Shown here: one piece after another, positions 22,573 through 51,137 of the stretch | Position numbering within the stretch: the stretch's first letter is position 1 | How the letters are laid out: the number at the start of each line of letters is the position of its first letter | NCBI GenBank assembly: GCA_030531905.1 | Contig: JAUNMG010000007.1 | Location: 1-54,864, forward strand | Length of the DNA: 54,864 nucleotides | Direction of reading: 5' to 3' | Source of the DNA: a bacterium | GTDB taxonomy: Bacteria > Bacillota_I > Bacilli_A > RF39 > UBA660 | The notes under the pieces: generated by a model | The model's input: only the letters and a program-made list of their open reading frames with translations | What the model was told of the DNA's origin: nothing | Database searches by the model: none | Made by a program: the position numbers and the translations under genes

Positions 22573-23223
22573 ATGGCAAAAAAAGCATATCGAGTTAAAA
22601 AGATAAGACCAAATGAAAACTACGTGCAAAAAGAAAGAAAAAAAACAGTTAAGACTGATATAAAAAAGTCTTTTACTAGAGAGATAAGACTATTAATCTT
22701 CTCTATTTTCCTAATGGTTGTTATGACAATGGCCGGTACATATTCTATTTTTAATTCAACAGAAAAGGAAGAAGAATACAACACAATAACAGTTGGTACA
22801 CTAAAAGTTGATTACTTAAAGGATAATACTAATCTGACCTTAAATGGAACAAACCAAATAAGTGATGAAGATGGTTTAAAACTAAAACCATATACTTTTA
22901 AAATAACTAATTTTGGAAGCTTTAATGCTTCATATAAAATTAGAATTGTTGACGATCAAGATATGATTAATGAAGACAAATGTCAGAATAAACTATTACC
23001 TAAATCATTTATTAAAATAAGTATTAATGAAGAAGAACCAGTATTACTTGAAAATTTAAAAAATATAGACTATACGGTGGCAACAGGTACGCTAAATCCT
23101 AAGGGAACAATTGATTATGAAATAAGAATGTGGATAGATGAAGGTAAGACAAAAAAGGATTTAACAAAACATTTTCATACAAAAGTTGTAGTTGATGATG
23201 TTAATTTAAGTACAGCAGGGTAA
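22573..23223 (+). CDS. SipW/TasA-type signal surface protein (distant paralog)
   Basis: AGTYSIF...NTITVGTL...YTFKITN.G...Y.IRMWID, same fold pattern as 5682/21184/35293. Confidence 0.7.
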   Translation: MAKKAYRVKKIRPNENYVQKERKKTVKTDIKKSFTREIRLLIFSIFLMVVMTMAGTYSIFNSTEKEEEYNTITVGTLKVDYLKDNTNLTLNGTNQISDEDGLKLKPYTFKITNFGSFNASYKIRIVDDQDMINEDKCQNKLLPKSFIKISINEEEPVLLENLKNIDYTVATGTLNPKGTIDYEIRMWIDEGKTKKDLTKHFHTKVVVDDVNLSTAG

Positions 23224-23319
23224 GATAGATGCTTTTTTGAGTATCTTTTTTCATGTACATTGACAAACAAATGTTTGTTATAGTATAATCGATATATTGA
23301 AGAAAGTAGGTATATTATT

Positions 23320-24897: not shown

Positions 24898-26612
24898 TCT
24901 ATTTTTTTGCAAAGAGAAAAACAACTAAAAATGTCAAAGATTTATTTACTAAAATAACAAAAAGTGTTAAGATATGTGTCAAAAGTTTTTATCTGTTAGG
25001 TAGGAAAAAGTTAAGTGACATTGTAGAGGAGTATAATAATGAAATTAGATTACAAGACAATTAAGCAATTAGAACCACAACATATTTTGCAAAAAATGTC
25101 ACCAGTATTTGATGATATTTATAAAGAAATAGACTATATGGAAATGTCAAAAGAGGAGTTTTATGATTTAGTATTGAATGATATTATTGAATCTAAAGAA
25201 AAATATAATGGCGATGTTTTGTATGAAAAATATATTAGAACTAAAATAAGTTCATCTCTTACTAAAAAAATAAAAGAATATTTTATGGATCAAGAAAAAA
25301 CTTATGTAATTATAAACAATTATATAAATACTCGTTTAAACTTGGGTGTTACAATTGATGATTCAATTAAAGAAATAAAAAAATTAAATAATTTTTTTAA
25401 TAAATATGATTACATTTCAAATCCAGATGTACTATTAAAAATAACTCAAAATAATAAAAAAATTACGAATATGATAGAGACGATTATTGGCAAGAATAAA
25501 AGTAAAATTACACTTGATGATTTAGAAAAAGATTTTGACAATAGCACAATAGTGTTATTTGAAGTCTATTGTATGTTAAATAATATAACAATAGAGGAAT
25601 TTGCAAAAGATGATATTAACTTAGATGATATTACTTTAACTGATAGTGTAAAATTATACTTAAAGGAGATATCCGCAAGGCCACTTCTTTCAGTAGAAAA
25701 AGAAAGTTAGCTAAGCAAATTTTAAATGGAAATGAGGAAGCTAGAAAAATATTTATTGAAAGTAATTTAAGGTTGGTTGTCAGTATAGCAAAAAAATATA
25801 TTGGTATAGGTTTGTCCTTTTCTGATTTAATTCAAGAAGGTAATTTAGGTTTAATAACTGCTGTTGAAAAATATGATGTAAATAAAGGTTTCAAATTTTC
25901 AACATATGCAACCCATTGGATAAGACAAGCTATTACTAGAGCAATAGCAAATAAGGGAAGAAATGTAAGAGTTCCGGTACATATGTATGAAAAGCTAGGA
26001 ATTTATAAAAGAACAGTTGCCAATTTAGAAACAAGATTAAATAGAAAACCAACATTAAATGAAATAGCAAACGAAATGGGATTATCAATTCCAAAAGTGG
26101 AAAAATTAGATAATCTTCAAATCGATACTATAAGTATGAATGAATTAAAAGGTTATGATAAAGATACTGAATTAGAAAGCCTCATTCCATCATCAAAAGA
26201 AAACCCCGAGGATGTAGTGATAGCAGGCACAATGCAACTTGAAGTGAGAAAGTTATTAGAAGAATGTAACTTAAAACCAAGAGAAATAGAAGTGTTGATG
26301 ATGAGATTTGGATTTGACGATAAAAAACCAATGACTCTTGAAAAGATTGGAAAGAAATTTAATATATCAAGAGGATGGGTGCACCAAATTGAAAAATCAG
26401 CGTTAACGAAACTTAGATGCTCTAAAAATATAAAAAAATTTGCTGAATATATGTATAATCCAGACGAGTCATTAGAAAATATACAACTATTTAGGAAAGA
26501 ATATAGGGAATCAGGAAATAAATTTAAGACATTAAAAATAACTTCAAAAGAAGAGGTGTTAACACCGAAAAATAAAAAAGAAGATAAACTAGCGTCAAGA
26601 AAACATCAAGCA

Positions 26613-26733
26613 ATGAAAAAGTCATTATCTAATTCAAATAACAATATAAAAGAAGAAAGTGAAAAATTTGAAACAAAAGAAGATACTATAAGTAATCAAG
26701 AAAAACAAGAAGAAAAATTACCAACAAAAGAAA
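26613..26733 (+). repeat. ~120-bp imperfect direct repeat (further copies at 26985-27105 and 27764-27884)
   Basis: Encodes [36 protein letters not shown] three times. Confidence 0.85.
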
Positions 26734-26762
26734 TAAATGAAAAGCGTAGTTATTTAGCTACA

Positions 26763-27359
26763 TTAGAAAAAGGAGAAAAAGAAAATATGGCAAGAAAATA
26801 TCAAACAATATATGAATATTTAAACGATTACACAAAAGAACAAATAGATGAAATGTTAGAAAAATTATCAGACGAAGAAAAAGCATTAGTATTAGCTAGA
26901 TATGGTGAAGACTTAAATAATCCGGTATTTGGAAAACTTAGTAAGCAACAAAGAGATAGGTTTTATGGAGCTCTAGTTCCTAAAATGAAAAAACTATTAT
27001 CTAATTCAAATAACAATATAAAAGAAAAAAGTGAAAAAATTGAACCAAAAGAAGATACTATAAGTAATCAAGAAAAGCAAGAAGAAAAATTACCAACAAA
27101 AGAAAATAGTCCTGTAAAAACAAATGTAGAAACTATTACGAAAAGTGATTATATTGAGATGTTAGAATTACTGAAAACACCAATATTTAATAAAATGAAA
27201 GATGTATTAACTATTAAAGAAACAGTAATTATTTCTTTAAAATTTGGGTATATAGATGAAAAATATTTTTCTGATAAAGCAATTGCTGAATTTTTGGGAA
27301 TAGAACAAAATGAAGTTATAGAAATATCGAAAAAAGCATTACTATTGTATAAAGAAAAT
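26763..27359 (+). repeat. ~597-bp near-perfect direct repeat, copy 1
   Basis: Matches 27542-28138 (offset 779) with only a few substitutions; includes an AGGAG RBS and ATG. Confidence 0.92.
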
Positions 27360-27541
27360 ATAAATAAATTTATTGATCATGCGATAGAAGTAATAACAGA
27401 AAATCCTTCAAAATTAATTAAAACAAATCAAAATAAATCAAAACAATCTAGGATATTAAAAGGATAATAAAAGATTAAGTCATGTTTTAAAATAAATGAT
27501 AAAGATTATATAAATAAAACTAAATAACCAATCAGCATTAC

Positions 27542-41128: not shown

Positions 41129-41205
41129 GTCTTCGTAGCTCAGTAGGATAGAGCAATCGCCTCCTAAGCGATAGGTCGGCAGTTCGATTCTGCCCGAGGA
41201 CACCA
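41129..41205 (+). tRNA. tRNA-Arg (anticodon CCT)
   Basis: Acceptor GTCTTCG/CGAGGAC, D arm GCTC..GAGC, anticodon arm ATCGC-CTCCTAA-GCGAT, T arm GGCAG-TTCGATT-CTGCC, encoded CCA. Confidence 0.97.
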
Positions 41206-41242
41206 ATGGCGAATCTGTTCGAACTATTCGAACTTTAAATAT

Positions 41243-41270
41243 ATGAATCAATCAGAAATGATTGATTTTT
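41243..41270 (+). terminator. Terminator after tRNA-Arg (inside island left end)
   Basis: aatcaatca-gaaa-tgattgatt followed by T run. Confidence 0.75.
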
Positions 41271-41299
41271 TCGTTTTTTGAAAAAATCATAGAAAGGAT

Positions 41300-41578
41300 T
41301 TGTCTATGATAAATATTATTAAAGAAGAAATTGAAATTGAAGAATCTTTAGAATCGAGGTTAAGAGTAATATGTGATTTTTGTAATACTACTCCAACAAT
41401 AATAAATGGAAGTATTAGAAGAATTGATAAAACTAATTTAACTTATATTGAGCCACATAGAATATATATTAAAAACAATTTATATCTAGCATTTAATTAT
41501 TCTAGTGAAATATATGTTAATAATTTAGGTAAAAAAATTAAATTATCAGAACTTGAAGATTATATAAAACAAGCATAG
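41300..41578 (+). CDS. Small hypothetical protein at island left end
   Basis: 92-aa ORF with AAAGGA RBS; contains CDFC; function unknown. Confidence 0.6.
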   Translation: MSMINIIKEEIEIEESLESRLRVICDFCNTTPTIINGSIRRIDKTNLTYIEPHRIYIKNNLYLAFNYSSEIYVNNLGKKIKLSELEDYIKQA

Positions 41579-41581
41579 GTC

Positions 41582-43807
<2,226 letters not shown>

Positions 43808-43855
43808 ATTTTGGATAGACCTAAAATGAACTATAAAAGAGAGGTAGTAAATTGT

Positions 43856-44062
43856 ATGAAAAAAGAATTTTATAATATTAAATATGGTAAATGTAATTTA
43901 TTAGATAAGGAGAATAAATTGTATTTAGTATATGCTGAAAAATGTGATTTACATTATATAGTTTGTACTTATATTGATGATATGGGTACTATGATGGGAC
44001 AAGAGTTTTTTGAAACTTTAAAAGAAGCAAAAGAATATTTTGATGAAAATAAAGAAGTGTGA
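43856..44062 (+). CDS. Small hypothetical protein coupled to the relaxase gene
   Basis: ATG 43856 after AGAGGT RBS; stop overlaps the GTG of the next ORF. Confidence 0.55.
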   Translation: MKKEFYNIKYGKCNLLDKENKLYLVYAEKCDLHYIVCTYIDDMGTMMGQEFFETLKEAKEYFDENKEV

Positions 44063-45444
44063 TTTTTATGGAACTTGTATATTCACTACATCTTGGTAGT
44101 GATAAAAATAAAAAGAATTCAGTAAGAGCAAGTGCTAAAAATAATGTAAGTGGAACTACTTCTAAAAGTAATAATGCTATACAAAATGCTAAACAATTAT
44201 CAAGAGTTGATAAACATAATTATAGAAAATATGATAATAATCAAGAGGATATTTGTATCGTAAGAGGAACTAATTCACTCTATGAAGATGTTAAACAATT
44301 ATATTTAGATTTATTTGAAGAATCTAAAATTAAGTATAATGAAAAACAAAGAGAAACAAGAAAGATAAATGATTATTTCTCTCATATATCAGATAATGCT
44401 AAAAATGATTTAGCTTGTGAACTAATTATTGAACTTGGAAATAAAAAATATTGGGATACAAAAGATATGGATTTTAAAAAGAAAATGACTAATGTATATA
44501 AAAAACAAGTTGAAGATTTAGAAATGCTAGTTCCTAATTTTAAAATAGCAAGTGCAATTATTCATTATGATGAAACAAGTCCACATATGCATATTGTAGG
44601 TGTTCCTATTAAAGAAAAAAATAAATATGGTATGGAATTACAAGTTGGTAAATCTGATGTATTTACAAAGGATTCTTTAAAAGTGTTACAAGATAAAATG
44701 AGAACGCTTTGTATTGAAGAATTTAATAAAGAATATGGATTAGATAATATTCTTAAGAAGAAACGTAAAGGAAGAAATAATGACTTTCTTGTTAGTGAAA
44801 TGGATAACTATAGTGAAATGCAAGAAGCAATAGAAAAACACCAAATGAATTTAGAAAAAGCAAATGAAAGTTCAAAAGATTTAGATAAAAATACAAATGA
44901 AATAAAAGATATTGTTAATGATTTAAAGAATGTTCCTTTAACCAAAAATAGTTACATATTAAAACAAGAAGATAAGGATAAATTAGTAGAATATTTAGAT
45001 AAAGTTGATAAAACAAATAATGACTATAAAACTATTCAAGATTTATCAGTATCATTAAAAGATATATCTACTGAACTATCAGAAAGCAAAGAAACAATAA
45101 AAATATTAAAACAATCAAATGATGCTTTAGAATTAAGAAATATCAATTTAAAAACTGAAAATTCTAAATTAAAAGAAAAGAATAAAACTCTACAAAAAGA
45201 ACTAGATAACATTAAAGAATTATTTGAAAAGATTAAAAATAAAATTAACAATCTATATCACTTCTTTGTAGATAAAATGTGGGGTAATAAAGAAAAACGT
45301 GATAAATATTATCCAGTTGCTTATGAATTATATGGTAAGAATATTTTAGATGAAGAACAAATAAGAGGTATATTAGGAACTAAACAAAGGTCAGCAGAAA
45401 TAGATAGAGAGTCAAAATCAAGAGATGATGATTTTGAATTATAA
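44059..45444 (+). CDS. mobV: MOBV/Pre plasmid recombination-mobilization relaxase
   Basis: HNYR motif I, AIIHYDETSPHMHIVGVP (HxDE..PHxH), LQD, long C-terminal coiled coil ending RDDDFEL. Confidence 0.88.
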   Translation: MIFMELVYSLHLGSDKNKKNSVRASAKNNVSGTTSKSNNAIQNAKQLSRVDKHNYRKYDNNQEDICIVRGTNSLYEDVKQLYLDLFEESKIKYNEKQRETRKINDYFSHISDNAKNDLACELIIELGNKKYWDTKDMDFKKKMTNVYKKQVEDLEMLVPNFKIASAIIHYDETSPHMHIVGVPIKEKNKYGMELQVGKSDVFTKDSLKVLQDKMRTLCIEEFNKEYGLDNILKKKRKGRNNDFLVSEMDNYSEMQEAIEKHQMNLEKANESSKDLDKNTNEIKDIVNDLKNVPLTKNSYILKQEDKDKLVEYLDKVDKTNNDYKTIQDLSVSLKDISTELSESKETIKILKQSNDALELRNINLKTENSKLKEKNKTLQKELDNIKELFEKIKNKINNLYHFFVDKMWGNKEKRDKYYPVAYELYGKNILDEEQIRGILGTKQRSAEIDRESKSRDDDFEL

Positions 45445-45530
45445 TGCTGAAAATATATAAATATATGATATAATTAAAATAGATTTTGTATAATCATTAT
45501 GATTATACTTTTTTATTGGAGGAAAGATTA

Positions 45531-46076
45531 ATGAAAAAACAAAAAAATATAGATGATGCTTACAAAAAACTAGAAATGATAAATCAATGGATTAATAATT
45601 CAGATAGTAAATCATCAATTGTTTTAGGTTTAGTAGGAATTATTTTTACAATTGTTTTTACTAACACAAATTTTATAAATAATATAGAAAGAATTATTAG
45701 TGAAATTAGTAAGCATATAATTTTTAGCGATGTTTTATATATTATATTTTTTATCATTTCTATTGTATGTTGTTTATATGGGATTTGGTCTTTAATAAAA
45801 GTATTAGTCCCTACAATTAAATCAAAAAATGTGAAAATAAAATCATATTTATTTTTTGGAAGTATAGCAAAGTATTCTAATTATAAAGAATATAAAGAAG
45901 AATTTTTAAAAGCAAATGGTGATGATATTATTGATGATTTATTAAATCAAATATATCAAAATTCAATTATTTGTAATAAAAAATATATTAATTTTACAAA
46001 TGGATTAAAATACTTTTTATTAGGTTTTGTTAGTTCGTTAATAATATTTGAATTAGGTGTATTAATTTATTTATAG
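45531..46076 (+). CDS. Pycsar transmembrane effector (PycTM/DUF5706-like)
   Basis: WINNSDSKSSIVL, TM helices, YLFFGSIA, DLLNQIYQNSIIC..KY..F..GL; ATG 45531 after GGAGG; adjacent to a cyclase. Confidence 0.82.
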   Translation: MKKQKNIDDAYKKLEMINQWINNSDSKSSIVLGLVGIIFTIVFTNTNFINNIERIISEISKHIIFSDVLYIIFFIISIVCCLYGIWSLIKVLVPTIKSKNVKIKSYLFFGSIAKYSNYKEYKEEFLKANGDDIIDDLLNQIYQNSIICNKKYINFTNGLKYFLLGFVSSLIIFELGVLIYL

Positions 46077-46086
46077 GAGGTTATAA

Positions 46087-46821
46087 ATGTATTACAATTA
46101 CAAAGAAGGTAAAAAGAAAATTGAAGAAATTTTAAATAATAATACAGAAATTCAAAACAAAGAAGTACCAAAAGATGATAGTAATTTTACCTACGATAAT
46201 GGTATTAAAAGTTGGATTGGATCTATTTTTGTTGATATAGTTGGTTCTAAAAAATTAATTGAAGGAGAAAAAGATATAGTTGTAGCAAAAGTGTTAAGGA
46301 GTTTTACATCTGAAATAATATCAATAATGAATAGTAGTGATAACGTAAGACAAATTGGTGTACGTGGAGATTGTGTATATGGAGTATTTTCAACACCATA
46401 TCAACCTGACATATATGAATTGTTAACTATTGCTACATACATTAATTGTTTAATAAAAATGTTAAATAAATTATTAACTAAAAAGAATCTTCCAAATATT
46501 AACGTTGGAATTGGAATTGGCGTCGGCGAGGATTTAATAGTTAAGGCAGGAAAAAAAGGGACTGGAATAAATGATAGAATTTGGATCGGAAAAGCAGTTA
46601 TTGATGCTTGTGTTTTAGCTGATAAGGCAGGTAGAAATGGAAATGCTATTATAGGTGTAAGTAGTCTTGCTTATGAAAATTTTATAGAAAAATTAACTGA
46701 AGAAAATTCTGAAGCACCAAAATGGTTTACTCAAAAATTTGATTTTGATTTAAACAAGTATTCATATTATGGCAATATTATAGATAATAGTTTTAACAAA
46801 TGGATTGACGAAAATTTTTAG
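46087..46821 (+). CDS. pycC: Class III nucleotide cyclase, Pycsar PycC-like
   Basis: IFVDIVGS and RGDCVYGVF metal-binding Asps, VGIGIG, IWIGKAV..A..L; operon with TM effector. Confidence 0.8.
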   Translation: MYYNYKEGKKKIEEILNNNTEIQNKEVPKDDSNFTYDNGIKSWIGSIFVDIVGSKKLIEGEKDIVVAKVLRSFTSEIISIMNSSDNVRQIGVRGDCVYGVFSTPYQPDIYELLTIATYINCLIKMLNKLLTKKNLPNINVGIGIGVGEDLIVKAGKKGTGINDRIWIGKAVIDACVLADKAGRNGNAIIGVSSLAYENFIEKLTEENSEAPKWFTQKFDFDLNKYSYYGNIIDNSFNKWIDENF

Positions 46822-46923
46822 TAGAATATTATAGTTATTGATAAATTATTAATATTTTAATAAAATTAGTAATAAATTAAAAAATGCTGTATAATAGATA
46901 GAAAGTTAAGGGAGGTTTTGAAC

Positions 46924-47730
46924 ATGAGTAATAAAAAGAAGAATAAAGATGTATTAATTATGATAGGTGGAGAATCAGAAACATTTAAAAGAGTAACTAA
47001 AGGTGATAGAATTAAAACTAAAGATGGTTATTATATAGCTGGTGAAACCGTCAAAGAAAACATGAATAGATGGGAACAAAATTTATTAGAATCTGAAAAA
47101 AATTTAAAAAGATTGAATGGCAAATTGGAGAAAGAAGTAAAAAAGTCCACAAAGTTAGATTTTAAAACATGGTTATATTTATATATTACACATGCCGTTA
47201 GAATAGAACATCCTCCTGTTATAGATGTAGAAGATAAAAGAACAATGTATGTTAAAGATAGTAAAAAAAATGAAGTATATGTATTTAGAAATTACGATGA
47301 ATATAAAAATTACTTTTTAATGTATCTAGATAGTATTGAAGAAGACATTATAGATTTAGCAATTTATACTAGAGGAAGTAAAGGTCAAATAATTGCCTTA
47401 AAAGGATTATGTGAACATATTATTGTTAAGAAAAAAATAAATGACTTTTATAGTTCAATAACACAAGAAAAGATAGATAAAATTCATGCTAAAGGAAAAC
47501 TCACTCCTTTAGAAGCCGTACAAATGTGGGAATCCTTTGATTTATGTGTTGAAGGAAGTAAATCAATTTTCTCTAAAAGTAGATGCCAATATTTTGATTA
47601 TAAATGTCATGAATGTTTAATGGAATCTGCATCACATAAATTGGAACATGATCCAATTGAATTTGAATTGGTAAATTCAACTAAAGAAGAACAAGGACCA
47701 GTTAAAAAACTAGTTCCAAATAAGAAATAG
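46924..47730 (+). CDS. Hypothetical cargo protein
   Basis: ATG after GGGAGGT; C...RC......CHECL Cys cluster; ends EEQGPVKKLVPNKK. Confidence 0.7.
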   Translation: MSNKKKNKDVLIMIGGESETFKRVTKGDRIKTKDGYYIAGETVKENMNRWEQNLLESEKNLKRLNGKLEKEVKKSTKLDFKTWLYLYITHAVRIEHPPVIDVEDKRTMYVKDSKKNEVYVFRNYDEYKNYFLMYLDSIEEDIIDLAIYTRGSKGQIIALKGLCEHIIVKKKINDFYSSITQEKIDKIHAKGKLTPLEAVQMWESFDLCVEGSKSIFSKSRCQYFDYKCHECLMESASHKLEHDPIEFELVNSTKEEQGPVKKLVPNKK

Positions 47731-47741
47731 GAGGTTTAACT

Positions 47742-48527
47742 ATGGCAAAAATATTTAGTGAAGATGCGTATTGTTTAGGATTACTATATTCATATTTATT
47801 TGCGGGTAAAAAAATGGTATTAAAAGATGATTTAGATGAGTATTATAAAGCTATTGAGAAGAATTTAGAAAATACAGGTGCAATGGATTTATATGCTACT
47901 GTGTGGCATGATGATGATCCATGTATTTACTATCCTAGTGAAGGTAAAAATGGAGAAGTGTATTATGTTTTATATCCTAATTTCGATATAGATAGAGCAA
48001 AATCAAAATATATTGGTTGTTTGTCGACACAAGTTTTAGTTGCAACACAAGAGGAAAATGCACTTAATTGTTTAGGATTACAATTAAAAGATGGAAATAT
48101 TTGTAAAAGGAATAATTACCATATTGGTATTGTTAGTGCTCCTACATTTATGAATCAATTTATTGAAAAATTAAAAAGTGGAGAATTAAAAATAGAGACA
48201 TGTCCTCAAGTTGAAGTAGATTCAGAATTAACTGAAGAATATATTATAAAACAATTAGAATCGTATCAAAAACTGCTCGAATCTGAAGTTATTGAAAAAG
48301 CAACAAATAAATTAATCATACGAGATGCTAGTTATTTAAAAGAAGAAGCAAAAGTTGTTGAAATTAAAAAAAGTGAAGATCATGATAGATTAGTTGATGA
48401 AGCAAATGTAAGAATTGAAGAAGGTAGAAGAAGAGAAGCTAAAGCTTGGCATGATGCTCAAAATTACATTGTTGATTATAATGAAGAAGGGCCAGTAAAA
48501 AAATTAGTTCCAAATAATAAGAAATAA
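47742..48527 (+). CDS. Hypothetical cargo protein
   Basis: AGGAGG RBS; ends EEGPVKKLVPNNKK. Confidence 0.7.
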   Translation: MAKIFSEDAYCLGLLYSYLFAGKKMVLKDDLDEYYKAIEKNLENTGAMDLYATVWHDDDPCIYYPSEGKNGEVYYVLYPNFDIDRAKSKYIGCLSTQVLVATQEENALNCLGLQLKDGNICKRNNYHIGIVSAPTFMNQFIEKLKSGELKIETCPQVEVDSELTEEYIIKQLESYQKLLESEVIEKATNKLIIRDASYLKEEAKVVEIKKSEDHDRLVDEANVRIEEGRRREAKAWHDAQNYIVDYNEEGPVKKLVPNNKK

Positions 48528-48667
48528 TGAAGGTATAGGAATATAACTTTTAAAGTTATTTATAATAAAATTATTGCTCATATTATTATGATTTGTTATA
48601 ATTTATATAGATTGATTCATATGAATCGTTATTGCCGAAAAAAAGTTGTAGACCTCTACGTCGTCGG

Positions 48668-48741
48668 CACCAGATTGATATGAAACTCGAACTTTTTCGG
48701 GATAACATAAAAACTACTTTCAAATTAAATTAAAGGTAGTT
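48668..48741 (+). repeat. att-like junction repeat, copy A
   Basis: CACCA-gattgatatgaaac-TCGAACT-ttttcgggataacataaaaactactttcaaat...aaggtagtt; homologous to 49263-49334. Confidence 0.8.
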
Positions 48742-48882
48742 GTATTTTATTAATTTAAAAATACACTTGCAAATTGTCAAAAATTAACATTTATTAATTG
48801 GAGAAAATATGGTAGATAAAAAATAAAGGAAATAAGAAACCTGAAATTGATAAGAACAAAAAAATATATATGGAGTGTAAAC

Positions 48883-49149
48883 ATGGGTAGAACAAGTGAA
48901 AATGACTTTATTTCCAGAATAAAAGAGATAAGAAAAAATATGAACTATACTAGTGCTGTATCTAGAACAGAACCTGTTGCTAAAATTCCCATAAATGGTG
49001 CAAAATTAGAAGAATTGGATAGGAGTATTAGAGAAAAATGTAGACAAAATCATTTAGAAAATCATAATTTAGAAGATAATGATGAAATTTATTATGCTGG
49101 TAATTCACAGGAAAAATGTTCAGTAAAGAAACTGACAAGAAAATACTAA
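48883..49149 (+). CDS. Hypothetical protein (sole gene of unit 2)
   Basis: ATG 48883 after GGAGTG; ends SVKKLTRKY. Confidence 0.6.
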   Translation: MGRTSENDFISRIKEIRKNMNYTSAVSRTEPVAKIPINGAKLEELDRSIREKCRQNHLENHNLEDNDEIYYAGNSQEKCSVKKLTRKY

Positions 49150-49262
49150 ATTGCGGTAAATATATTGTTTTTTTAATGCTTTGATGTAATTACTTTAGTT
49201 AGTAAGTTTATTACTTACTATCATCTTTTAGCCTTGGGGTTGTTAGATATACTCTTTCCTTG

Positions 49263-49334
49263 CACCAGATTGATAGTAAACTCGAACTTCTCGAGATAAT
49301 ATAAAGCTACTTTCAAATAAGCAAGAAAGTAGTT
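49263..49334 (+). repeat. att-like junction repeat, copy B
   Basis: CACCA-gattgatagtaaac-TCGAACT-tctcgagataatataaagctactttcaaat...aaagtagtt; homologous to 48668-48741. Confidence 0.8.
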
Positions 49335-49456
49335 TTTTAAATTTTACAAATTGATTTCATCAATTAATGTGTGATGAATATTTTTATATATTTATTGACA
49401 TATATTCAAATAATATTTAAAATATAGTATAATTAAATAGAAATGGAGACTTTATT

Positions 49457-49999
49457 ATGATTGAAATAAATAAATTAAAATCAATGATAAAAAATAATAA
49501 AAACGTATTTAAAGATAATATAAATGATATGACTATAAAATCATCAAGTGGTAATAATATAATTTTTAGTGATTTTAAAGGAAACGAAATAACAGCAGAA
49601 ATTAATGGTAGTGATATAATATCTAGATTTGATGATAAAAATAAGTATGTTAAGGCTACAGAACCATCAAGAGATTTTTTAGAAAGAAAATTAGGAATTC
49701 CATATGAAGAATTTGACAAATTAGATTGTGATGAACAACATAAAATTCTTCAAGCACATAAAAAGAGTTTAAAACCAACTAAAAAAGATGAAGTTCTAAT
49801 GATGATTGGAAGTGGTGAATATTCAACTTTTATCAAAGTAAAAAAAGGTGAAAGAGTAATGCTTAGTGATGGAACTTTTGTTGAAGCAGGTTTAACACTG
49901 GAAGAATCAAAAAGAAGATTAGATGATAAAATGGATGATATGCTATATAGTAAACCAGTTGCCTTAGTAAAAAAAATTAGTAGAAAGTTTAAAAAATAA
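49457..49999 (+). CDS. Hypothetical protein (sole gene of unit 3)
   Basis: Promoter TTGACA-N17-TAAAAT at 49395; GGAG RBS; shares a ~50-aa segment with the N-terminus of 46924; ends LVKKISRKFKK. Confidence 0.7.
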   Translation: MIEINKLKSMIKNNKNVFKDNINDMTIKSSSGNNIIFSDFKGNEITAEINGSDIISRFDDKNKYVKATEPSRDFLERKLGIPYEEFDKLDCDEQHKILQAHKKSLKPTKKDEVLMMIGSGEYSTFIKVKKGERVMLSDGTFVEAGLTLEESKRRLDDKMDDMLYSKPVALVKKISRKFKK

Positions 50000-50026
50000 T
50001 TTTTGGAAATTGGTTTTCCTTTATGG

Positions 50027-50077
50027 CACCAAATTGTTAGAAAATGTCTTGATTTTAAATGATTTCAAGGCGTTTTT
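50027..50077 (+). terminator. Distal CACCA junction with terminator (probable right boundary of island)
   Basis: ggCACCA-aattgttagaaaat (10/14 match to copy B arm), then aaaatgtcttga...tcaaggcgtttt hairpin plus Ts. Confidence 0.55.
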
Positions 50078-50379
50078 ATTATTTTTAAAAAGAGTGGGAA
50101 GATAGAGCCAAAGATAATTTGAAAAATTTAGATTTTTAATTATGAATAAGTATATTATAATCTAAGTAACATAAAAAATAACTATGGACCTATTTTACCA
50201 AACTTTGAATGTTATTCAAATGCCTGCAATAAAAAACACTTTCATTATTATGTAAAGATAACAGTCACTAACTAAATGTTGTTAAATATACTTTGAAAAA
50301 AGTTAAAAAAATAAAAAATATTTATAAAGTTTCAATACTATATGATATAATTTATTTAATATTATTTGTGGTAATTTTT

Positions 50380-51137
50380 ATGACTAAAAAAATTTAATAA
50401 TAAGAGGAATATCATTTATAATTGTAGGTATTGTTTTATTGATATTAATGGTTAATTTTAGTGATACTAAACTTCCTATATTAGGATATCATTCCTTTAC
50501 TAAAGAAAAAAGTAATGATCAATTTGTAATAGAATTAGATCAGTTTGAGCAACAGTTAAAGTATTTAAAGAAGCATAAGTATAAAACTATTGGTTTAGAT
50601 GAGGCATATGATATTTTTAAAAATAAGAAAAAAATACCTAGAAAAACAGTAATGATTACTTTTGATGATGGTTATCAATCTAATTATGATTTAGCTTTTC
50701 CACTTCTAAAAAAGTATAATATGAAAGCAGTTGTGTTTGTAGTTGGATATCATGCCAAAACTAATAAAGATGGATATATGTCTTTAGAAACTCTTAGTAA
50801 AGTAAAATCAGAATATCCTAATGTAGAAATAGCCTCACATACATATAATCTTCACGTTGATGGAGTAGTTGGTATAGATAAAAAACAATTAGAAAAAGAT
50901 TTTAAAAAAATGAATGATATTGTAGATACTAAGTATTTTGCTTATCCATATGGTAAAAATGATAAAACTGTAGAAAAGGTACTTAAAAATAATGGTTATA
51001 AGTTAGCCTTTACTTTTGGTCCAGGTAAGGAGCATAGAAGAGCAGGAATAGAAAAGGATTTATATAAAATTCCAAGACTTAATATTACTAATAATATGCC
51101 AATGTGGAAATTTATCTTAAGACTAAAATATATTTAA
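50380..51137 (+). CDS. Polysaccharide deacetylase (CE4/NodB); N-terminal anchor out of frame at an A7 tract
   Basis: [32 protein letters not shown]; ATG 50380 plus TM anchor joins the frame only if one A is added at 50386-50392. Confidence 0.85.

Follow-up and report, generated by a model that had tools for sequence, protein, structure and literature searches.

In a 54,864-nt stretch of DNA from a bacterium of the RF39 lineage (contig JAUNMG010000007.1 of assembly GCA_030531905.1; hereafter, the window), the 3' end of a tRNA-Arg(CCT) gene appears to be the left attachment site (attL) of a 7.5-kb integrative mobilizable element (IME) inserted there by a large serine recombinase (LSR). The clade to which this enzyme belongs would target many tRNA genes and the transfer-messenger RNA (tmRNA) gene, through a proposed recognition of the T-loop and of the C72-N73-CCA end (tRNA numbering). 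We put the probability of this reading, which rests on comparison of sequences, at roughly 0.8. Integration at tRNA and tmRNA genes is conventionally tied to tyrosine integrases, each with a long copy of the end of one tRNA.

Results

The junction at the 3' end of tRNA-Arg(CCT)

The tRNA-Arg(CCT) gene, which is also present in 11 relatives in our locus comparison, ends in a junction that an initial annotation of the window had described as an exactly spaced inverted pair (AGTTCGA in the T-arm, 13 nt, CACCA, 13 nt, and TCGAACT), with a second TCGAACT following. Direct reading bore out every coordinate: the first TCGAACT lies at 41219–41225 and the second at 41228–41234, 9 nt away (start to start), in a tandem TTCGAACTA/TTCGAACTT arrangement. 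We identify the 3' part of the gene (about 41181–41202) as the B half-site of attB and attL, and 41181–41236 as attL itself, of which the left half (the B arm) would be the tRNA gene and the right half (the P' arm) the conserved end of the element.

Could the mirror be a chance inverted repeat beside a tRNA gene, followed by genes that are no mobile element inserted at that place? With up to two mismatches allowed, the window has a single occurrence of the full spaced pattern (0.06 expected), and a 7-mer mirror of this kind arose at least once somewhere in the window in 6 of 100 shuffles, which leaves such an origin a little room. TCGAACT is present in five copies in 54.9 kb against 1.73 expected, a number that 4 of 100 shuffles reached, and each of the five copies belongs to an att-type junction (at the T-loop and at 41219, 41228, 48687, and 49282). 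We consider the pattern to be more than chance because the island-side (P') arm, with the consensus tTGacgAATcTGTTCGAACTaTTcgAActtt, is conserved in 23 unique arms that accompany LSRs with identities down to 57%. The P' arm is kept across 50 junctions, a matching right end exists, and a relative lacks the island genes at the same site; the probability that the repeat arose by chance is negligible.

The island itself, by comparison with related loci, is a 7,467-bp IME that occupies 41206–48672. We located its ends by eye and by locus comparison; a repeat search within the island missed them because they have just 5 bp in common. The P arm at the right end, AAGTTGTAGACCTCTACGTCGTCGG, recurs in 33 places in related loci and has a P' arm as its partner in 31 islands. 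The same 5-mer stands at both ends in 30 of these 31 two-ended islands (CACCA in 25, and CTCCA in 5, at tRNA-Gly-type junctions), in agreement with the earlier proposal that these elements dispense with a long 3' duplication of the tRNA. Just beyond the P' arm, the island carries a hairpin and T-run that is kept at the same place, with altered stem bases, in other islands (L025–L104; AATCAATCAGAAATGATTGATT versus AATCAATCGAAAGATTGGTT), and that is likely to be a replacement terminator for a tRNA severed from its own.

Related integrases lie behind many tRNA genes and tmRNA

We surveyed the best 80 of 132 related loci, which came from gut metagenome-assembled genomes of the 'Bacilli/Tenericutes' type and carry LSRs that are 41–97% identical to the LSR of the window. 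Junctions were tallied from aragorn calls of tRNA and tmRNA genes and a motif search, which gave 61 motif matches in the 80 loci. In 46 loci, the conserved P' arm directly follows the CCA of a tRNA or tmRNA gene called by aragorn on the same strand, and in four more the same junction was recognized by eye or from another call (L041 and L044, tmRNA-like; L090, Gly-CCC; L098, Leu-CAA). The P' arm abuts the P arm of another element, in a tandem array, in six loci (L043, L046, L048, L049, L056, and L088). The junction class is ambiguous in three (L032, L073, and L099), and the motif matches in two (L076 and L085) are false. No P' arm was found in the remaining 19 loci, 13 of which have less than 650 bp of upstream sequence.

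The targets at the 46 aragorn junctions are Leu-TAG (11), tmRNA (7), Thr-CGT (7), Leu-CAA (6), Thr-GGT (5), Gly-GCC (4), Thr-TGT (2), and Arg-CCT, Arg-CCG, Phe-GAA, and Leu-GAG (1 each). Together with Gly-CCC from the four additional loci, these 11 types make 12 target gene types in all. The initial annotation had predicted that the enzyme may target many different tRNA genes and that a tabulation of the tRNA isotypes beside homologous recombinases would reveal it; the outcome is as predicted, and enzymes that are 97–99.5% identical sit at different genes.

If there were instead one recombinase per tRNA gene, as with tyrosine integrases, the variety of neighbors would reflect diverged enzymes. 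The tRNA-Gly islands fit this expectation, in that they occur in just two deep parts of the tree, each beside Leu-targeting relatives, and have CTCCA. The closest relatives do not: three LSRs that are 99.2–99.5% identical (L070, L074, and L075) have Leu-GAG, Thr-GGT, and tmRNA as their targets, the 25 closest LSR pairs listed with differing targets are all at least 97.4% identical, and a tree of 45 LSRs requires 28 target changes. Moreover, within the 1.36-Mb genome that contains the window, the same P' arm follows four genes: tmRNA (C5), tRNA-Arg(CCT) (C11), tRNA-Leu(CAA) (C17), and tRNA-Leu(TAG) (C53). An arrangement of one enzyme for each tRNA is thus very improbable. As judged from these sequences, the LSRs of the clade are not partitioned by target, and near-identical enzymes insert behind many tRNA genes and tmRNA.

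Two of the copies in this genome, those at C17 (about 2864–4890) and C53 (about 22742–23232), are without an LSR, and the C53 copy, of only ~500 bp, consists of the element ends and a relaxase fragment. Related LSRs are encoded elsewhere in the genome, at C50 (about 16740; 59% identical) and C37 (51% identical).

Distant LSRs (43–50% identical) have other P' arms, as in L043 at Thr-GGT (GATTGATAGGAAAYTCGRAC) and L102 at tmRNA, where the arm is of a third type (TAGGGAAATTAGTCGAAC). A second element family, with GATTGATAGGAAAYTCGRAC as its left arm, is found behind tRNA-Arg(CCT) in most relatives (e.g., L013 (G007) and L016) and also at 48673 and 49268 in the window. In L043, where this arm stands behind tRNA-Thr(GGT), an LSR about 50% identical is encoded 590 bp downstream.

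Anatomy of the attachment sites

Across 48 unique target (B) arms, the only conserved blocks are the T-loop, gGTTCaA.TC, and gC[A/T]CCA. The T-loop of these targets is mostly GTTCAA, not GTTCGA. The P arm follows the pattern rAGTTGTArA...CT.C.....GC[A/T]CCA. We considered whether the P arm is a T-arm-like mimic of a tRNA and set this idea aside, as the 85% group does not preserve the small inverted repeat in question (GTAGA..TCTAC).

Comparison of the two ends of each island narrows down the crossover. Position 71 differs between the ends in 7 of the 31 islands and position 77 also differs, which places the crossover within 72–76. The five CTCCA islands are of the tRNA-Gly type, which indicates that position 73 of attP follows the discriminator of the target. 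In a dyad scan of the 31 rebuilt attP sites, complementarity peaked at axis 72.5, between positions 72 and 73 (0.448, versus 0.17–0.39 elsewhere); a second peak at 76–77 (0.372 at 76.0) is produced by the second TTCGAAC copy. Because of this dyad axis and the covariation of position 73, strand exchange is probably at C72-N73, just 5' of CCA (C72-A73, 41201–41202 here), and this position is more likely than a cut inside the CCA end, as had been suggested initially.

When half-site positions are counted from axis 72.5, AGTTGTA occupies positions 25–19 in the P arm, AGTTCGA occupies 24–18 in the P' arm, and RGTTCRA occupies 21–15 in the tRNA. The outer motif is 3–4 bp nearer to the center in the B arm than in the P-type arms; expressed in tRNA-equivalent positions, GTT is at 49–51 in the P arm and at 53–55 in the T-loop, a 4-bp inward shift in attB. 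The 31 rebuilt sites have the arrangement expected of a large serine integrase, with an attP that is an imperfect inverted repeat of ~50 bp and an attB in which the outer motif is closer to the center. For the Listeria LI integrase, the available part of one report describes an attB zinc-ribbon motif that is shifted 5 bp relative to attP, and an attB that favors T at positions 17–19 (PMC3783163).

The exact dyad around CACCA, which the initial annotation had pointed out, does not generalize. Most targets have GTTCAA, so that the 7/7 match is peculiar to this tRNA; the mirror is exact at this junction only because this tRNA has A52 and G57. The apparent symmetry around CACCA (axis C74) looks like a B-type and a P'-type half-site set side by side, with their center about 1.5 bp to the left.

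The right-hand (B') flanks of the 31 islands are heterogeneous. Sixteen are P'-like arms of other elements, and the other 15 comprise about 11 plain AT-rich flanks with terminators, two or three diverged arms, and one contig end; TCGAAC is missing from the native B' flank in about 11–15 of the 31 islands. As native flanks often lack the motif, attB seems to need just its tRNA half, and it looks one-sided, with a single conserved half.

Tandem elements and the unoccupied site of a relative

The 7.5-kb island is followed by further CACCA junctions at 49263–49267 and 50027–50031, and TCGAACT stands 14 nt after CACCA in the first two right-hand arms. The region 48673–50031 is probably made up of a tandem pair of decayed elements; of their junctions, the last is the weakest. 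The chromosome resumes beyond the third element, with a polysaccharide deacetylase gene at 50439 and synteny with locus L014 of relative G006 from near 50368. In G006, the same HD-domain gene and tRNA gene come first, and the genes for deacetylase, GDPD, and transketolase, which lie 9.2 kb downstream in the window, begin no more than 225 bp beyond them. The stretch of G006 between the tRNA and the next gene (L014, 610–768) contains a terminator and a P'-like arm, together with a ~45-nt block that is conserved in L016–L019 as well. We considered G006 as a clean empty attB and rejected this: the island genes are absent, but the P'-like arm remains, so the site is unoccupied and not naive. No matching P arm was found at the G006 site, and a deletion may have left the P'-like arm behind as a solo end.

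A proposed mechanism and its alternatives

We propose that the B-side subunit would recognize features common to all tRNA genes at a fixed spacing. Its zinc-ribbon domain would read the T-loop GTTCRA at half-site positions 15–20, the C72-N73-CCA end would be the second feature recognized, and the B' side would be largely unconstrained. The strands would be exchanged at a core of 2 bp, for which C72-N73 is the likeliest candidate (CA here, and CT in the tRNA-Gly-specific subclade). The element would supply its own (A)CCA and terminator, leaving the tRNA intact, and new elements would insert between the tRNA and the resident element, giving arrays. With no constraint on the right half of the target, a tRNA site that is already occupied could receive a further element, which would explain the tandem arrays here and elsewhere. 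Reading of the T-loop by the zinc-ribbon domain is what we infer as the most economical explanation, because the T-loop and gC[A/T]CCA are the sole conserved blocks in the targets. In its most general form, to which we give slightly less than an even chance, the proposal is that the clade uses the 3' third of the tRNA gene (a T-loop and C72-N73-CCA set at a constant spacing) as a one-sided attB, and that a single enzyme inserts, without damage to the gene, behind practically every tRNA or tmRNA gene that encodes CCA and has a discriminator in accord with the central dinucleotide of attP (CA; CT in the Gly-specific subclade).

Several points weigh against this account. All tRNAs keep their T-loop and CCA for independent reasons, and the conservation of both in the targets is no proof of recognition by the enzyme. 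In the P' arm, the first TCGAACT misses the mirror position of the P-arm motif by 1 bp, and the second (41228–41234) lies outside a canonical 50-bp attP and gives the secondary dyad peak at 76–77. Few independent switches underlie the covariation of the discriminator: the tree has three class changes, and these are found among long branches. The canonical LSR model does not allow attP to recombine with attL, so insertion beside an occupied tRNA calls for a further explanation. Finally, six loci have long upstream sequence and yet no P' arm, and the unoccupied site of G006 retains its P'-like arm.

In a rival reading, the T-loop mirror is incidental: the enzyme would recognize the acceptor/CCA end or DNA shape only, the TCGAACT of the P' arm would matter solely for the recognition of attP, and the island and the targeting of multiple tRNAs would still be real. 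The presence of a T-loop in every tRNA makes its conservation among targets uninformative, and both the prevalence of GTTCAA over GTTCGA and the native B' flanks without TCGAAC are in keeping with this idea. CACCA alone, however, is far too frequent for the specificity seen, and among the 61 motif matches (2 false and 3 ambiguous) there is no confirmed junction whose left arm is neither a tRNA nor an element. In addition, RGTT(C/G)(G/T/A)A is common to the P, P', and B arms, with the 3–4 bp offset between P-type and B-type arms that the zinc-ribbon model of LSRs expects. We regard an incidental mirror as unlikely.

A shade less likely still is that the tandem TTCGAACT repeats bind not the integrase but an accessory protein, for which the product of the 92-aa open reading frame (ORF), a directionality factor, and a regulator are candidates. 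The copies are direct repeats 9 bp apart, the second of them beyond the 50-bp attP, and the small ORF that separates the P' arm from the LSR gene is conserved. In other element families, by contrast, only one TCGAAC is kept, opposite the P arm in mirror position (GATTGATAGGAAACTCGAAC), and 5/5 copies of TCGAACT in the window are at recombination junctions.

The serine integrase

By sequence and by predicted model, the enzyme is a full large serine integrase. Pfam matches cover the catalytic domain (PF00239, 1.8e-34) and the recombinase domain (PF07508, 1.2e-17). The N terminus aligns with the catalytic domain of TP901-1 integrase (3bvp, 5.3e-19), with YIRVSTEDQ opposite YTRVSTTNQ at the serine motif, and S15 is invariant in 23 homologs. 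The match to Zn_ribbon_recom (20 bits) is under the 25.3 cut-off, yet the enzyme has CPKC...CNDC, with invariant cysteines. An AlphaFold model from a 23-row alignment (mean predicted local distance difference test [pLDDT] score 74.7) has long helices at residues 318–406, after the zinc ribbon (coiled coil), and a Foldseek search with this model returned the full-length SPbeta, Bxb1, and phiC31 integrases (3.9e-21 to 6e-13). In a phage collection, LSRs are at most ~30% identical to that of the window.

Residues 2–484 match the phrog_95 integrase, and residues 485–661 (window 43240–43773) form a conserved C-terminal extension of ~180 aa outside that match, with a recurring strand-strand-helix pattern. 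Folded alone, the C-terminal 222 residues gave a mean pLDDT of 58, and a Foldseek search against the PDB returned no match at E <= 0.001. The extension may be an extra DNA-binding module. DUF4368 is not among the Pfam matches of the LSR at E up to 1.

Content of the island

In Pfam searches, the LSR is the sole recombinase of the island, and no ORF of 41206–50031 has a tyrosine recombinase (Phage_integrase-type) domain. The island has its own integrase and a Mob_Pre relaxase (with a homolog of 55% identity in L023), and no mating-pore gene set was found in it (no VirB4- or VirD4-type Pfam match within the 7.5 kb), as is expected of an IME. An origin of transfer (oriT) was not located in the island. 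The adjacent PycC and PycTM genes correspond to the definition of Pycsar, and so the island carries a complete two-gene anti-phage system as cargo. The 270-aa and 261-aa cargo ORFs have similar 3' ends with a 38-nt repeat that is 87% identical, suggesting a tandem duplication. The 92-aa ORF has homologs in the same position by tblastn (L023, 74%; L013, 33%), and as a candidate accessory or directionality factor it is a matter of speculation. Pfam, PHROGs, and PADLOC returned nothing usable for the ORFs at 41300–41578, 43811–44062, 46918–48527, 48847–49149, and 49457–49999. Coordinates are collected in Table 1.

Table 1. Features of the tRNA junction, the island, and the elements that follow it in the window
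Feature	Position	Strand	Remarks
tRNA-Arg(CCT) gene, CCA encoded	41129–41205	+	ARAGORN; sole tRNA gene of the window
AGTTCGA	41181–41187	+	Last two T-stem and first five T-loop bases, tRNA positions 52–58; candidate zinc-ribbon-domain motif
CACCA core	41201–41205	+	C72, discriminator A73, C74, C75, A76; sole sequence common to attL and attR
P' arm of island (ATGGCGAATCTGTTCGAACTATTCGAACTTT)	41206–41236	+	TCGAACT at 41219–41225 and 41228–41234; kept in 23 unique arms beside 12 gene types
Hairpin and T-run just 3' of P' arm	41246–41279	+	Carried by island; read from sequence; likely terminator
92-aa ORF between P' arm and LSR gene	41300–41578	+	Unassigned family
LSR, 661 aa	41788–43773	+	PF00239, PF07508
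83-aa ORF overlapping relaxase start	43811–44062	+	ORF list; weak LPD5 match below cut-off
Mob_Pre (MOBV-type) relaxase	44059–45444	+	Pfam PF01076, 4.2e-12
PycTM effector, Pycsar cargo	45486–46076	+	PADLOC, 4.9e-31; Pfam PycTM
PycC cyclase, Pycsar cargo	46087–46821	+	PADLOC, 3.1e-83; Pfam Guanylate_cyc
Cargo ORF, 270 aa	46918–47730	+	ORF list
Cargo ORF, 261 aa	47742–48527	+	ORF list
P arm (AAGTTGTAGACCTCTACGTCGTCGG) and core of attR	48643–48672	+	CACCA at 48668–48672; island right end
Probable decayed second element, 595 bp	48673–49267	+	P'-like arm of another family (GATTGATATGAAACTCGAACT), TCGAACT at 48687–48693; P-like arm and CACCA at 49239–49267
100-aa ORF in second element	48847–49149	+	
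Probable decayed third element, 764 bp	49268–50031	+	P'-like arm, TCGAACT at 49282–49288; weak P-like arm and CACCA at 50027–50031
180-aa ORF in third element	49457–49999	+	

Other observations

Elsewhere in the window, a 564-aa ORF (25773–27467) has sigma-70 regions 2–4 in its first 215 residues and no family match in the remaining ~350, and it is directly followed by a 591-aa ORF that has no family match. Contigs with at least half of the sampled words of the window were listed for 20 sequencing runs from 10 studies, mostly of chicken gut metagenome.

Discussion

Significance

It is unusual for serine integrases that a clade specifies tRNA and tmRNA ends, with a 5-bp overlap and at least 12 genes as targets. 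If our reading is true, it would show how an LSR can gain high specificity from a single conserved half-site, and it would account for the accretion of defense cargo such as Pycsar behind tRNAs in small-genome gut Bacilli. Island-finding software would then have cause to include serine integrases in its searches at tRNA genes, as the short repeats there evade detection. The enzyme would be a compact, cofactor-free integrase with landing sites already numerous in any CCA-encoding bacterium, and, if attB is indeed one-sided, its target class might be re-programmed through one base of attP, giving a broad-host, 'behind-any-tRNA' bacterial tool. Its use is doubtful in organisms whose tRNA genes do not encode CCA, human cells included.

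Comparison with known systems

The papers that could be searched describe serine integrases as not targeting tRNA genes, and we found no description of serine integrases that target tRNA ends in open-licence PMC and bioRxiv full text; TIGER/Islander data may hold cases. With the canonical LSRs (phiC31, Bxb1, TP901-1, Listeria A118/LI, and SPbeta SprA), the enzyme of the window shares the order of catalytic domain, recombinase domain, and zinc ribbon with coiled coil, the imperfect inverted-repeat attP of ~50 bp, the attB outer motif nearer to the center, and the very short identity between ends. It differs from them in its extra conserved C-terminal part of ~180 aa, for which there is no fold match, in an attB that appears to have a single conserved half, and in its targets, which are the 3' ends of many tRNA and tmRNA genes, whereas a canonical LSR has one site, usually in a protein gene.

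In having close relatives at many different sites, the clade resembles multi-targeting LSRs (the TndX/TnpX-like clade and Cp36), as far as the available part of that work describes them (PMC10083194); pairs that are 97–99.5% identical at different tRNA and tmRNA genes are instances of close enzymes at several unrelated targets. According to the same partial source, 63% of the TndX/TnpX-like clade have DUF4368, and their target motifs are AT-rich or short (Durrant et al., 2022, PMC10083194). The LSR of the window, in contrast, has no DUF4368 match, and its targets are one class of gene at one defined position. The word tRNA is absent from the main text of that paper, the supplements of which may hold such cases.

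As in the Tn4451-type IMEs of Firmicutes that use a serine recombinase, the element is small, combines a serine integrase with a relaxase, lacks conjugation pore genes, and has very short repeats. Serine-recombinase IMEs are described, in the part of the review available, as integrating with low specificity or inside dispensable or ICE (integrative and conjugative element) genes, which are disrupted (PMC5704250). The family in the window, unlike the Tn4451-type elements, inserts at tRNA ends and leaves the gene whole.

The islands that tyrosine integrases place at tRNA and tmRNA genes (Islander/P4-like islands, streptococcal ICEs and IMEs, and tycheposons) are similar in that insertion is at the 3' end and does not inactivate the gene, in the accretion of elements and remnants beside the tRNA, and in their defense cargo. 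In streptococcal ICEs, the direct repeat is a tRNA fragment of 12–54 bp and the integrases group by the tRNA targeted (PMC4701971); in tycheposons, the tRNA repeat is about 40 nt and the integrases likewise sort by tRNA. The island of the window has no displaced tRNA 3' fragment at its far end, where attR has only CACCA in common with the tRNA end. It differs from the tyrosine-integrase islands in having a serine enzyme, a 5-bp repeat, and what appears to be one enzyme for many tRNAs.

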